NCBI RefSeq assembly: GCF_006345805.1
Contig: NC_043007.1
Coordinates: forward strand, 34,844,001 to 34,908,000
Source of the DNA: Octopus sinensis
Lineage: Eukaryota
Length of the DNA stretch: 64,000 nt
Direction: 5' to 3'
Part shown: in pieces, positions 15,134-63,697 of the stretch
Layout of the letters: each line of letters begins with the position of its first letter
How positions within the stretch are numbered: the stretch's first letter is position 1
Notes under the pieces: generated by a model
Seen by the model: the letters and a program-made list of their open reading frames with translations, nothing else
What the model was told of the DNA's origin: nothing
Database searches by the model: none
Program-made: the position numbers and the translations under genes

Positions 15134-15174
15134 AAAATTACTCCGAGTTTCACATTTTTGTTCATCAGACAGTT
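15134..15174 (-). ncRNA. Type I hammerhead-like motif; core intact, 3' strand of stem I partly deleted
   Basis: Minus strand: AACTGT-CTGATGA-ACA AAAA TGT-GAAA-CTCGGAG-TA-ATTTT. Confidence 0.55.
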
Positions 15175-15297
15175 CTGATCAAGACTGGAATAAAATTGGT
15201 ACATGTAATATATGATTTGATATAATCTAATTTGATGAATAAGCATTTGAATTTGATTGGGTTATGTCTGGGGAGGGTCATTTTCTTTTTGTGCCTT

Positions 15298-15500
15298 ATA
15301 ATTTAACACACTCACCAGTAAAATTTCCACTCATTTCTTATTTTTATTTTCCGAAAATTTTCATTGTGTCTTGCAACCTTTTCAATAGTCTTTATCATGA
15401 TGGCAAATACTACTGAAAAGGTTGCAAGACTCAATGAAAATTTTCGGAAAATAAAAATAAGAAATAAGTGGAAATTTTACTTGTGAGTGTGTTAAATTAT
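15298..15500. repeat. Fold-back element: 92-bp inverted arms with a 19-nt loop
   Basis: 15298-15389 is the reverse complement of 15409-15500 with few mismatches. Confidence 0.9.
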
Positions 15501-16476
15501 GACAAAGATCAAGGTGTACCGGGCTGTTGTTCTCACAACACTGCTTTATGGCTGTGAGTCCTGGACGGTCTACCAGCGTCATGCCAGGAAGCTGAACCAC
15601 TTTCATACAATATGCCTCAGAAAACTTCTTGGCATAAAGTGGCAGGACAGGATCCCCGACACCGAGGTACTAATCCGTGCTAACCTGCCCAGTCTTGATG
15701 CAGTCTCAGCTTCACTGGGCAGGGCACATAGCTCGCATATCAGACGATTGATTACCAAGAAGATTGTGTTGGTGGCACATAAAAAACACCATCCGAGCGT
15801 GGCCGTTTGCCAGCCTCGTCTGGCACCTGTGTCGGTGGCACATAAAAAACACCATCCGAGCGTGGCCATTCGCCAGCCTCGTCTGGCACCTGTGTCGGTG
15901 GCACATAAAAAGCACCCACTACACTCACGGAGTGCTTGGCGTTAGGAAGGGCATCCAGCTGTAGAAACACTGCCAGATCTGACTGGCCTGGTGCAGCCTT
16001 CGGGCTTCCCAGACCCCAGTTGAACCGTCCAACCCATGCTAGCATGGAAAGCGGACGTTAAACGATGATGGTGATGATGATGATAATTGCTCTTTAGCGA
16101 GCTACAAAAGGGAAAGCACTCACAAGGCGGCCACAAGAAGCACTTTAAAGACACGCTGAAAGCCTTCAACATCGACCATGACACTTGGGAGCAGTCTGCT
16201 CTAGAAAGAGAAGGGTAGCGATCAGCTGTCCACAAGGGTGCCAACACATGCGAGACCAATAGGATCGCTGCTGCAGAAGACCGAAGACAAGCCAGGAAGA
16301 ACAGAGCTAACAACCCTGTAGCAGGCGCTACCATTCCCTGTCCACACTGTCAAAGACTTTTTCGGGCGCAGATTGGCCTCACTAGCCATCTGCAGACTCA
16401 CAAAACAGGCCAACCCCCACCCCAGGATGACTAGATGGTCTTCGTTGCATCGACAGACAAACTACATTCAGTAGTC
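15501..16476 (+). mobile_element. RTE (BovB-like) LINE 3' end, interrupted by SINE D at ~15765-16085
   Basis: TKIKVYRAVVLTTLLYGCESWTVYQRHARKLNHFHTICLRKLLGIKWQDRIPDTEVL. After the SINE: ELQKGKHSQGGHKKHFKDTLK and a terminal C2H2 finger CPHCQRLFRAQIGLTSHLQTH. Confidence 0.9.
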
Positions 16477-16797
16477 TTGATTGGGTTTCTCATTTTCAAA
16501 ATATAAACGGTGTTATATTTTCTAATGGTTGGGCAGGTTGGGGGTGTATAAATTGAACAGTAAAATATAAATATATTATATTATATTATATATCAACAAA
16601 AAAAACCTTGAGTGAAGAAGGGGGTAATGCATGTTCAATTTATACACCTCCAACCCACCCAACTGTTAGCAAATACAACACTGTTTAGGTTTTGAAAATA
16701 AGTTATCCAATGAAATCCAAATGCTTATTCACCAAATTGGATTATACCAAATCAATTATCACATATATCATTGCAATTTTATTCCCACCTTGATTAG

Positions 16798-16839
16798 AAC
16801 TGTCTAAGAAACAGAAACGTAAAACTCTGAGTAACAGTT
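16798..16839 (+). ncRNA. Degenerate type I hammerhead; stem I intact, core mutated; inverted paralog of 15134-15174
   Basis: AACTGT-CTAAGAA-ACAGAAACGT-AAAA-CTCTGAG-TA-ACAGTT. Confidence 0.45.
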
Positions 16840-17052
16840 TTATGATGTTTTTGCAGCTTTAGTATAAAAGCATATTACTCTACCTTTGGTATTTGAGTAC
16901 TATTTTTTCCACCTTGTTTTGCATTTATGTGCTTACTCGCATGTGTGTATGAATATGTATATATATGTATGCATGTGTGTGTGTGTGTGTGTGTATGTAT
17001 ATATGTATATATATATATATATATATATATATATATATATATATATATATAT

Positions 17053-60774: not shown

Positions 60775-60869
60775 GTATTTAGTACGATCGTTCATACAAG
60801 GACAGGTTTTATTAAAAGTTGCAAAGATTACAGCATATAAACGAGTCCCGTACTCATCAGCTAAAATAC
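60775..60869 (-). ncRNA. Type I hammerhead motif, left-arm copy (GAA instead of GAAA)
   Basis: Reverse complement of 62898-62993 lacking one A of the conserved GAAA. Confidence 0.6.
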
Positions 60870-62897
60870 ATGTAAGTTCTCTAGACATCCTAGTGTTTGA
60901 GGCTATACTCATGAAGTAATGTAGATAATTAAACAGATTTCTAAAGTTCATTAAAGTTCTTTAAAGATGATGTACAGTCTTATCACAGAATTTTAAAAAA
61001 GTTTTGATAGCATCACAGAGAAGGTGACCTAATCCATATGAATTTCCATAGATATGATGAGGGATTATATACTCACAGAAGACAAATTATCCATTGTTAA
61101 TTACAACGAGGTGGGTCTCAATTCCTGCTTATTAGCATTACAGAGAGGGTGAATTAATCCTTTGTATGTATGCACAGATTCCAATGGTGTAGATGTAAAT
61201 TTCCAGAGAAATGGAGATGAATTTCATATTCACAGGCGATAAATTTTACAATGGTTGAACACAATGAGGTAGGTATCAATCCTTGTTATATGATTAGGTG
61301 TTTGCCACATTAATCACATTACTGCTATTCACAAGAGGCTGTAGCTATTTAACTCTTAAAGGCTGAAGGGCTTACTAGATCGGCCAAGAATAGAGAAGGG
61401 AATAGAAGAAAAGAGAGAAAATAATGGAGGAGGGAGCAAAAAGGGGGGGGGAAGGGGGACTAAAAGAGAAGAGAAAAGGAAACAGAGAATAAGAAGAAGA
61501 AAAAGAAAAAAGAGAAAAGAGAAAGAAATAGGGAAAGAAGGGAAAAAAAAGAAAAGGAAAAAAAGAGGGTTCTAGTTATACAGAAGAGTTCGTAGACTGT
61601 AAGTCTGGTTTTAATCAGAGGTTAATTGAGGCTTTATTTAATTTCAAACTCACAATTTTTAAATTCTTAATTTTAAATCTTAATTGTAATATTTAATTTT
61701 AATTCCTAACTTAATCTAATTTAAATAGCATAACTCTAATAAATTATAATTAGTTATTGTAGCCCCATAATTCTATTTCATAATTAAATAAATAAGGCTA
61801 TTCCCTCGGTGATAATATGATTATCTTCATTATGATAGACAATCCCCTAACACCTTGTAAATGATCTTATAAGATTTGACCTGTAGTCAGTCAATGTATG
61901 AATAATAACGACAACTCCTTAAGACAATAAAATGAATAAATTAAATAAGTAAATTTTTAATGACTTTTTGATAAGATTATACTTAGATTTTCCTAATGTA
62001 TTTTCTGGTGATTTTAGCATCTGACCCCTTAACCCCTGACTGTGTTATCTCTTTAGATTCTCTTTAAACTCATAGCTGATTTCAACAGCAATAAATTAAC
62101 GGTTTACTGGTCAAAGAATAATATTCTCCTCTAGTTCCTAGATGCCTGTTGATTAAAACCAGACTTACAGTCTACGAACTCTTCTGTATAACTAGAACCC
62201 TCTTTTTTTCCTTTTCTTTTTTTTCCCTTCTTTCCCTATTTCTTTCTCTTTTCTCTTTTTTCTTTTTCTTCTTCTTATTCTCTGTTTCCTTTTCTCTTCT
62301 CTTTTAGTCCCCCTCCCCCCCCCTTTTTGCTCCCTCCTCCATTATTTTCTCTCTTTTCTTCTATTCCCTTCTCTATTCTTGGCCGATCTAGTAAGCCCTT
62401 CAGCCTTTAAGAGTTAAATAGCTACAGCCTCTTGTGAATAGCAGTAATGTGATTAATGTGGCAAACACCTAATCATATAACAAGGATTGATACCTACCTC
62501 ATTGTGTTCAACCATTGTAAAATTTATCGCCTGTGAATATGAAATTCATCTCCATTTCTCTGGAAATTTACATCTACACCATTGGAATCTGTGCATACAT
62601 ACAAAGGATTAATTCACCCTCTCTGTAATGCTAATAAGCAGGAATTGAGACCCACCTCGTTGTAATTAACAATGGATAAATTTGTCTTCTGTGAGTATAT
62701 AATCCCTCATCATATCTATGGAAATTCATATGGATTAGGTCACCTTCTCTGTGATGCTATCAAAACTTTTTTAAAATTCTGTGATAAGACTGTACATCAT
62801 CTTTAAAGAACTTTAATGAACTTTAGAAATCTGTTTAATTATCTACATTACTTCATGAGTATAGCCTCAAACACTAGGATGTCTAGAGAACTTACAT

Positions 62898-62993
62898 GTA
62901 TTTTAGCTGATGAGTACGGGACTCGTTTATATGCTGTAATCTTTGCAACTTTTAATAAAACCTGTCCTTGTATGAAACGATCGTACTAAATAC
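62898..62993 (+). ncRNA. Type I hammerhead ribozyme motif
   Basis: GTATTTTAG-CTGATGA-GTACGGGAC...GTCCTTGTAT-GAAA-CGATCG-TA-CTAAATAC. Palindromic helix III ACGATCGT. Predicted cleavage after A62985. Confidence 0.82.
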
Positions 62994-63119
62994 CTATCCA
63001 TTCTTGTTGCTTCTTTCTCGCGTATATATATATATATTATATATATATATATATGTATATATGAATGTATAATATATATATATATATATATATATATATA
63101 TATATATATATATATATAT

Positions 63120-63420
63120 TGTTGTAAAGTGGTCTTTTGCCACTGTTGTATCTGTCTTTTGACAATGGTGTCACTCTGACAGATATTGTTTTATTCCAAA
63201 ATTGTTGATAGAATGGTTCTATCTGGCACTGTACAACCTCCAGTCATACAATATTAATATCCTTGACGTCCACTCAGTATCACAGTATAATTACTATATC
63301 AGCACAAACACGACTATCAACACAGTCTACACATACTGTCAACCTTCCAACCTTTTTCCTCAGTCGATTGTCTATTTATAATGGCTGGCTACTACCACTT
63401 TTTATATAAATAAGGATAAG
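63120..63420 (-). mobile_element. Solo LTR related to the 39856-41036 element
   Basis: Minus strand AAAAAGTGGTAG..CCAGCCATTATAAATAGA ... CCACTTTACAACA. Confidence 0.7.
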
Positions 63421-63639
63421 ATCGTTAATTTAAATATCGATCTTATCAAGTGGCCAGCATGGAAATAAAAACCTTCAAAGGTAATAATTATTATTAAAAT
63501 TATAATTTAGGGTATCTAAGAGATACCTCCACGCTGGAAATAGTAGCCAAAACTTGACTCTAAAACCACATTAAATGTTCATACAGCACCAGGAGAGAAG
63601 ACAAAAGGACAAAATAAACTACCAAAAAATTACTGGATA

Positions 63640-63697
63640 ATTCCAGATCCCGGATTTCTGGCTTTGCATAAGAAATGCTTTGCCTCATCAGTGGAAT
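63640..63697 (-). ncRNA. Type I hammerhead ribozyme motif (variant)
   Basis: Minus strand ATTCCA-CTGATGA-GGC AAA GCAT ttctt ATGC AAA GCC-A-GAAA-TCCGGGA-TC-TGGAAT. Perfect 6-bp stem I. Confidence 0.72.

Follow-up and report, generated by a model that had tools for sequence, protein, structure and literature searches.

We analyzed a stretch of 64,000 nt from the genome of Octopus sinensis (contig NC_043007.1, positions 34,844,001 to 34,908,000 of the forward strand; hereafter the window), in which an original prediction had placed at least four unrelated families of hammerhead ribozymes. Three of the proposed motifs, at 62907-62985 on the plus strand and at 25196-25124 and 63691-63646 on the minus strand, are very probably hammerheads near the 3′ ends of truncated copies of Penelope-like elements (PLEs) of the Hydra clade inserted in (TA)n, and they would cut the RNA of the element itself, likely as dimers. 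The motif regions of the window belong to INTERSPERSED repeat families, and these three motifs lie in families C, B, and D, respectively.

Both strands of the window were scanned with a descriptor consisting of CUGANGA, a helix II of at least 3 bp, GAAA, a helix III closed by an A...U pair, a UH cleavage site, and a helix I of at least 4 bp; a relaxed form accepted one extra base before GAAA. The strict descriptor gave two matches, those of families C and B, and the relaxed descriptor added that of family D. In 200 dinucleotide shuffles of the window, the mean number of matches was 0.005 (strict) and 0.025 (relaxed), the maximum was 1, and none of the shuffles equaled the observed count. The motif frequency in the window is thus not that of a shuffled background, and a chance origin is excluded for the B, C, and D motifs.

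The three matches read as well-formed type I hammerhead sequences. The family C hammerhead (62902-62990, plus strand), which is intact by the strict descriptor and shows covariation in 21 related sequences, has a helix I of tttag and ctaaa, CTGATGA at 62907-62913, a 60-nt helix II, GAAA, and the helix III palindrome ACGATCGT at 62978-62985, with predicted cleavage after GTA at 62985. The intact family B hammerhead has CTGATGA at 25196-25190 (minus strand) and the palindrome ACATATGT at 25127-25134, with predicted cleavage after GTC at 25124. In family D, helix I is formed by attcca and tggaat, CTGATGA lies at 63691-63685 (minus strand), one extra A precedes GAAA, the palindrome ATCCGGGAT is at 63648-63656 (minus strand), and cleavage is predicted after ATC at 63646. 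All the (near-)palindromic helix III sequences quoted in the original prediction, including ACTCGGAGT of family A at 15139-15147 (minus strand), were present on direct reading at every site claimed for them.

The core of CUGANGA, GAAA, and a UH site was found in the C, B, and D motifs, in D with the extra A, and not in the inverted partner of C, in the family A copy at 16798, or in either family E copy. Therefore, the hammerheads that had been proposed at 25113, 62898, and 63640 stood, whereas the C partner proposed at 60775 has a 1-nt deletion that leaves GAA for GAAA, and the pair proposed at 15134 and 16798 reads as a decayed hammerhead, the first copy keeping both core boxes without helix I and the second keeping helix I (aactgt/acagtt) with core boxes changed to CTAAGAA and AAAA. 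The variant hammerhead proposed at 29047 and 35778 (family E) did not hold up: its core is the non-canonical CTGTTGA, and E is not counted as a hammerhead because position 6 was U in 14 and C in 1 of 15 sampled rows, and never A. A BLAST comparison of eleven hammerhead modules with the window gave no further copies.

Covariation was scored for the C-type only, the B and D copies being too alike, in 21 of 22 distinct C-type sequences taken from lineages whose reverse transcriptases (RTs) are 60-100% identical; the sequence omitted, L060:279-359, has most of helix II deleted. It was found that 94.4% of the cells pair in the proposed structure, compared to 35-54% when the partners were slid. Five pairs change on both sides. 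Three of these are among the six pairs of helix I, where UA/CG and AU/GC exchanges were each seen in 7 sequences, and in helix III a GC/AU exchange occurs in 6 sequences, with GU intermediates in 5. Because the helix III change occurs on both sides, the palindrome is kept: ACGAUCGU becomes ACAAUUGU, which is still a perfect palindrome. Helix II was 99.3% paired, with one-sided changes only (GU/GC/AU). The compensatory changes in helices I and III argue for selection on the fold, and a palindromic helix III across families fits what the dimer model of Cervera and de la Peña predicts. In energy calculations, the minimum free energy structure of B contains helices I and II (z = -2.6), and a D homodimer pairs 8 of 9 palindrome positions between the copies.

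The plus-strand family C copy (61618-63019) is 5′-truncated and comprises about 1.4 kb of 3′ untranslated region (UTR). It is 97-99% identical to genomic copies, and the same 3′ region follows open reading frames (ORFs) for RT and endonuclease. Its 3′ end is of a short form, extending about 37 nt beyond the cleavage site, and abuts a (TA)n microsatellite (63020-63120, by direct reading). Head-to-head with it lies an inverted, 5′-truncated partner (60637-61617, minus strand), read directly, and the arms are 99-100% complementary over about 830 nt. The partner has a long 3′ end with an extra tail of about 110 nt (60637-60745), matching the 5′ UTR of full-length copies; its hammerhead with GAA is at about 60860-60783 (minus strand), with ACGATCGT again near 60783-60790. 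A (TA)n-rich microsatellite (60441-60636, by direct comparison) flanks the pair on the left.

Contig depth in four runs of uncertain kind gave profiles that disagree, one spiking over 62933-62990 and another dipping there. In run X1, word depth was 2400-8400 over the 3′ half of the C hammerhead but dropped to 275 immediately beyond the cleavage site, a pattern that was lacking in two other runs.

The window itself has no PLE ORF, and a Pfam search of 28 of its 44 listed ORFs of at least 110 aa gave a Cornifin match and one RVT_1 fragment. This fragment (48981-49379, minus strand; E = 6.6e-9) is what remains of an RT, apparently from a type of retroelement other than the Penelope families. The coding parts of family C were found elsewhere in the 2.72-Gb genome, for which our counts of first-look candidates are lower bounds and about 40 copies were scored per family. 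The RT segment of C gave at least 13326 candidates, with scored copies 60-100% identical and open frames of up to 1124 aa. In 11 loci of 8.4 kb fetched across the range of RT identity, an ORF with a CxCX5C motif was found in 9 (780-1124 aa, and additionally a truncated inverted copy of 492 aa in L077), and a C-type hammerhead lay 0.9-1.6 kb 3′ of the ORF in 9; several of the 11 had a second hammerhead in an inverted, 5′-truncated copy on the 5′ side. On the minus strand of a further C pair (L043, 5.3 kb), there are ORFs in which YRDD, a CKCRIKSKC linker, and a GIY-YIG-like block were recognized.

A 947-aa frame of family C contains RWK (RRIRWKTY), DKT (PADKTGN), YRDD, an N-rich low-complexity linker, CKCRIKSKC, and VIY...YIG...R..NH, together with CQLC...E and CVH. 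The signatures published for the Hydra clade are RWK, DKT in place of DKG, the CxCX5C linker, and CxxC and CxH (Craig et al. 2021, PMC8557442). A CCHH motif within the endonuclease core of the C protein appeared, by eye, to be absent. Pfam gave nothing significant on the PLE proteins, and look-alikes in the ESM Atlas, which we take as a lead only, were eukaryotic hypothetical proteins, some of them with RVT_1.

From these loci, a full-length C unit has the order (TA)n, partial 3′ UTR, hammerhead, about 37 nt, a 5′ UTR segment of about 120 nt, ATG, RT, N-rich linker, CxCX5C, GIY-YIG, 0.9-1.6 kb of 3′ UTR, hammerhead, tail, and (TA)n. The C unit is thereby a pseudo-long-terminal-repeat (pseudo-LTR) unit with one hammerhead per repeat. 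Locus L078 gives one such order, from (TA)n through 120 nt of 3′ UTR end, hammerhead, 5′ UTR, ATG, ORF, 3′ UTR, hammerhead, and 37 nt to (TA)n, and between its two cleavage sites this unit measures about 4.6 kb. The sequence of about 120 nt that follows the 3′ hammerhead in long copies recurs directly upstream of the ORF in L079, L086, L082, and L078. Therefore, the one-sided tail is the element's own 5′ UTR.

The 3′ ends of family C fall into two groups. Among 63 distinct copies of the C module, counted after edge-touching matches, in a number not recorded, had been dropped, 26 end 31-41 nt past the cleavage site (query positions 278-288), 19 of those at a single position, and 34 end about 153 nt past it (398-401). 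At each of the two end points the template has a TA-rich motif, TTATAAT and TGAATATATT in the junction sequences.

Family B is present as a 5′-truncated, 205-nt 3′ module (25061-25271, minus strand), identified by the descriptor and assigned by longer copies with RT and endonuclease to a second Hydra-type PLE lineage. The module is followed, in direct orientation 3′ of the hammerhead, by a tail of about 139 nt, tail X (24922-25060, minus strand), which ends at (TA)n. Like C, B has two end forms: of 10 copies, 4 carry tail X on their 3′ side in direct orientation and 3 carry it on their 5′ side in inverted orientation. Family B seemed short at first, 8 of 10 sampled copies being no longer than about 350 nt; 209 nt of upstream sequence, part of a stretch of about 220 nt common to two short copies, led to longer ones. 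These carry a YRDD RT and a GIY-YIG endonuclease, with same-strand ORFs that end about 590 nt before the hammerhead and encode a Hydra-type endonuclease end. Locus L112 has a 593-aa frame with YRDD at residue 66 and YIG at residue 487, followed by 3′ UTR, hammerhead module, tail X, and (TA)n. The CxCX5C motif was not matched in the three B loci examined or in another translated B copy; a translated endonuclease end shows CAVC and CMH.

Over 325 aa, the B and C proteins share 33% identity (E = 4e-41), so that the families, proposed to be unrelated, are so at the nucleotide level and not, for these two, at the protein level. The proposed link to PLEs was borne out by the ORFs for RT and GIY-YIG endonuclease upstream of the C and B hammerheads. 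Since longer copies run unbroken into these ORFs, the B and C copies of the window are read as 5′-truncated remnants of two autonomous lineages of one clade. Both Penelope lineages (L077:2098-4938, P0001 residues about 500-800; L106, P0002) have a long N/S-rich stretch between RT and endonuclease, a feature that the consulted sections of PMC8557442 do not ascribe to the Hydra clade.

Family D is a short element of about 340 nt (63401-63740, minus strand) with its hammerhead near the 5′ end and a tail of about 245 nt. In 29 copies found by means of the tail, the 3′ end was fixed in all 29 and the 5′ ends were scattered, 6 copies reaching the hammerhead and 23 being truncated within or past it, with no pile-up of 5′ ends at the cleavage site. 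There was no ORF beside D in these 29 loci or in 10 earlier ones (39 in total). The extra A before GAAA was present in 14 of 14 D rows and CTGATGA in 13 of 14, and the additional A recurs at that place, between helix II and GAAA, in an unrelated bystander family (L078:1704-1743, plus strand); such a natural change of the core may be tolerated. D resembles an independently spreading pseudo-LTR module that consists of the hammerhead and its tail.

Family E has two copies in the window. One is an element of about 200 nt (28990-29110, minus strand) reading CTGTTGA-A-GAGC GTAG GCTC-GAAATGTA, with U at position 6 of its non-canonical core, and the other (35760-35880, plus strand, by direct reading) is more diverged and abuts (TA)n. 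In 12 loci the E unit was 180-230 nt, often beside (TA)n, and too short to code. Three features of the motif, an additional base following position 9, a G10.1-C11.1 pair, and an ACGU palindrome, are those of the min-HHR (HHR, hammerhead ribozyme) in Cervera and de la Peña (2014; PMC4209133). Among the families of the window, only D and E look non-autonomous. Therefore, the claim that the elements are non-autonomous does not apply to C and B, which belong to autonomous lineages, and it is plausible for D and E. A 3′ tail common to the short families and RT-bearing loci was not found for D or A, and an apparent sharing of the B and E tails with RT-bearing loci was rejected, the matches being only to separate neighboring insertions.

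Family A forms an old head-to-head pair, its age being judged from arms that are only 82-84% complementary. The left arm (15100-15262, minus strand) has the motif at 15168-15139 with both core boxes and helix III ACTCGGAGT, and the right arm (16632-16870, plus strand) keeps, besides helix I, helix III ACTCTGAGT. Across 11 A rows, CUGANGA was canonical in 3 and position 4 was T in 5 and C in 6, with CpG-decay variants. Between the arms lies a near-perfect palindrome (15298-15500) with 101-nt arms that are 93% complementary and a 1-nt spacer; it gave microRNA-like, sub-threshold Rfam matches and is possibly a miniature inverted-repeat transposable element or another fold-back element. Tandem repeats of 63 nt at 15765-15890 recur in other family A loci.

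Across the genome, the numbers of first-look candidates were at least 1009 for family C (scored copies 99-100% identical), 2416 for B (95-100%), 1558 for D (91-98%; at least 3063 for its tail), 322 for A (76-88%), and 2470 for E (93-96%). The high copy number that had been proposed is borne out by these lower bounds, and so is the diversity, in that at least five further hammerhead families were found as bystanders in 391 kb of fetched loci, every one of them with a palindromic helix III (ACAGCTGT, ACTATGCATAGT, ACTGATGTCAGT). The association with (TA)n also held: of 64 hammerhead matches in fetched loci, 45 had a (TA)≥6 tract no more than 260 nt 3′ of the cleavage site, compared to a background frequency of 15.5% of positions in those loci and 12.7% in the window. 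In the window, (TA)n adjoins B and C on both sides, D on one side, and E at 35778, and the A pair adjoins (TG)n/(TA)n. Inverted pairs were confirmed in the window for A and C; the two E copies, 6.7 kb apart, do not form one. Copies in the genome are mostly 5′-truncated and often in head-to-head pairs, and many matches are minus/plus pairs with their 3′ ends pointing outward. Such pairs recur at many loci with spacings of about 180 nt to 5.3 kb and with differing junction points. No direct tandem copies were found in the window, and the genomic D and B matches are singles or minus/plus pairs.

A mechanism can be proposed in which (TA)n would be nicked by the GIY-YIG endonuclease. Reverse transcription would then be primed by the TA-repeat 3′ end released in this way, once it had annealed to either of the two TA-rich sites that follow the ribozyme. 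Because these sites lie beyond the ribozyme, the template would likely run through the junction between hammerhead and 5′ UTR, as a tandem, read-through, or re-circularized unit RNA. If both target strands served for priming, head-to-head pairs would result, and the two placements of the tail, in direct orientation on the 3′ side or inverted on the 5′ side, would be accounted for. The hammerheads would pair through helix III, and by this dimer action, which we infer from the palindromes, cut multimeric RNA to unit length; D, with hammerhead and tail only, and E would be short derivatives copied in trans. A wider interpretation is put forward tentatively, and we doubt that it holds in full: that these families represent an unusually large, recently active radiation of the Hydra clade, with helix II insertions of 54-60 nt, two TA-rich priming sites in the 5′ UTR of the next unit, and a template that crosses the junction, D and E being dispersed solo pseudo-LTR short interspersed elements (SINEs) and an undescribed, non-tandem form of animal retrozyme. 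If true, circularized or tandem unit RNA would serve as the template through the ribozyme junction.

Several points weigh against our interpretation of the three motifs as self-cutting hammerheads of Hydra-clade elements. None of the 63 C module copies starts at the first base past the cut, so that these genomic copies show no sign of cleaved 5′ ends. The PLE hammerheads in print showed poor cleavage in vitro (PMC4209133), and in D and one bystander family the predicted core is interrupted between helix II and GAAA by an additional A. The outcome of energy folding and cofolding was mixed, in that the predicted minimum free energy structure of C uses other pairings (z = -0.3) and its predicted dimer leaves the palindrome unpaired. 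The C unit, at about 4.6 kb, exceeds the length of less than 3 kb given for Hydra elements (PMC8557442), because of its N-rich low-complexity linker between RT and endonuclease and its 3′ UTR of 0.9-1.6 kb. Membership in the clade is suggested by motifs and by a by-eye comparison with the Hydra-1_Obim rows of a published alignment. The Rfam hammerhead models score none of these sequences: there was no hammerhead match in the window at the gathering score, none among the 150 matches listed of 183 at E ≤ 10, and none among all 13 matches in a search of 861 nt. This silence was rejected as a test of absence because the descriptor and covariation evidence is positive.

Poor cutting in vitro and the lack of copies starting at the cleavage site also bear on the possibility that the motifs are chance matches or decayed relics without ribozyme activity, with the hammerhead merely riding along. 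Families A and E have spread or persisted with non-canonical cores, and Naiad PLEs thrive without hammerheads, which may simply parasitize PLEs (Craig et al., PMC8557442). Nevertheless, the shuffles excluded chance for B, C, and D, compensatory changes preserve the pairing of helix I and the palindrome of helix III in lineages with as little as 60% RT identity, and 10 of 10 B copies and 13 of 14 D rows retain both core boxes, although the copies of both families are young. We therefore regard inactivity as improbable. It is somewhat more conceivable, but still unlikely, that all the families are non-autonomous and retrozyme-like, lacking enzymes of their own and copied in trans by Penelope enzymes. 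D, with its fixed 3′ end, scattered 5′ ends, and lack of an ORF, and the 180-230-nt E unit would fit such a view, as would the short length of most sampled B copies, and a preprint derives animal retrozymes from PLE pseudo-LTRs (10.64898/2026.07.22.740005). For C and B, however, the longer copies are continuous with ORFs for RT and GIY-YIG endonuclease, which makes the short copies ordinary 5′ truncations, and the copies are dispersed or head-to-head, unlike the tandem arrays that define retrozymes; with about 40 copies scored per family, a rare ORF-bearing copy of D or E is also possible.

The inverted pairs might in principle be assembly artefacts, that is, fold-back chimeras of long reads, and the near-identity of the C arms over about 830 nt is a pattern that chimeric reads can give. 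We consider this extremely improbable, given that minus/plus pairs with different spacings and junction points recur at many loci, that the A pair is old, and that an inverted arrangement is the published norm for PLEs (PMC8557442). The reading of the B, C, and D motifs as hammerheads of truncated Hydra-clade elements is thus the one we retain.

The general architecture found here was already in print (PMC8557442, PMC4209133), and the novelty hoped for in the original prediction does not extend to it. As described in PMC8557442, Hydra-clade PLEs have canonical hammerheads and insert almost always into (TA)n, in molluscs as well, and PLEs have pseudo-LTRs, adjacent inverted 5′-truncated copies, and a tail at one end only. 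The elements described here are alike in these respects, and in having a single ORF with RT followed by a C-terminal GIY-YIG domain and, in the C protein, RWK, DKT, the CxCX5C linker, and CxxC and CxH around a conserved E and N. The supplement of that paper lists one octopus Hydra family, Hydra-1_Obim, of 2507 bp, which inserts in (TA)n. The Hydra-2 hammerheads of a coral and a sea cucumber (PMC8557442, file S2) have the layout of family A, with a ctgt/acag stem I, an ACTC-N-GAGT helix III, and a UA site, whereas the published octopus hammerhead, with helix III ACCA-A-TGGT, is none of families A to E. The differences, drawn from published descriptions and not from a computed comparison with reference sequences, are that the tails here are 110-245 nt compared to 30-40 bp in the Hydra clade, that helix II of B and C has an insertion of 54-60 nt, and that the copy number is large, as judged from the first-look RT candidates. 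In a literature search on hammerhead ribozymes and octopus, Craig et al. was the only Penelope-hammerhead study among the matches listed.

A dimer-type palindromic helix III is likewise known from the hammerheads of metazoan PLE pseudo-LTRs (Cervera and de la Peña 2014, PMC4209133). Those hammerheads share with the present ones the type I topology, a short palindromic helix III needing a second copy, the G10.1-C11.1 pair, many sequence families per genome, opposite-strand pairs 100-700 bp apart, and the fact that most copies are truncated PLEs. In contrast to the descriptions given there, helix III here is not missing but forms a palindrome of 4 bp per side, families B and C have a far longer helix II, the extra base of family D is on the 3′ side of helix II and not between positions 9 and 10.1, and Rfam models score none of the sequences found here. 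Non-LTR retrozymes (PMC7229834; Li, Clavereau & Pollet 2026) are similar in being short non-coding units of 170-400 nt with a type I hammerhead, and they are thought to be copied by PLE enzymes and to derive from PLE pseudo-LTRs (PMC7229834; preprint 10.64898/2026.07.22.740005), being PLE-dependent or PLE-derived elements. Families D and E fit them in size and in lacking an ORF (E by its length). Tandem arrays and abundant circular RNA are the defining features of retrozymes, whereas D and E are dispersed singles or head-to-head pairs with 5′ truncation like that of target-primed reverse transcription. D would fit the idea that animal retrozymes derive from PLE pseudo-LTRs, yet it is dispersed and not tandem.

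Some other features of the window lie outside these families. Weak tRNA-like matches (30-33 bits) at 17219-17294, 38486-38559, and 38794-38862 (all minus strand), of which two are separated by about 300 nt, probably represent the heads of tRNA-derived SINEs and not tRNA genes. The Cornifin/SPRR match (E = 1e-22) is in a low-complexity repeat ORF at 13229-14086, probably a proline-rich tandem repeat, where the GC skew is -0.28 at 12-14 kb. The 2-kb bin at 56001-58000 has a GC skew of +0.44 and is probably a G-rich microsatellite or satellite.

Taken together, the families described here are best called new members of an already described kind of PLE hammerhead, every general feature of which is in print, and they are distinguished by long helix II insertions, 5′ UTR tails of 110-245 nt, an N-rich linker between RT and endonuclease, a very large copy number, and short dispersed derivatives. 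What appeared to be a ribozyme hotspot becomes an annotated set of remnants of Penelope-like elements. Because Rfam models miss this class of hammerhead, annotation pipelines will leave thousands of them unlabeled in such genomes. The families provide a natural data set on why PLE hammerheads keep a palindromic helix III, on the nature of the one-sided PLE tail, which is here the element's own 5′ UTR, and on how (TA)n targeting sets the 3′ end of the insertion.

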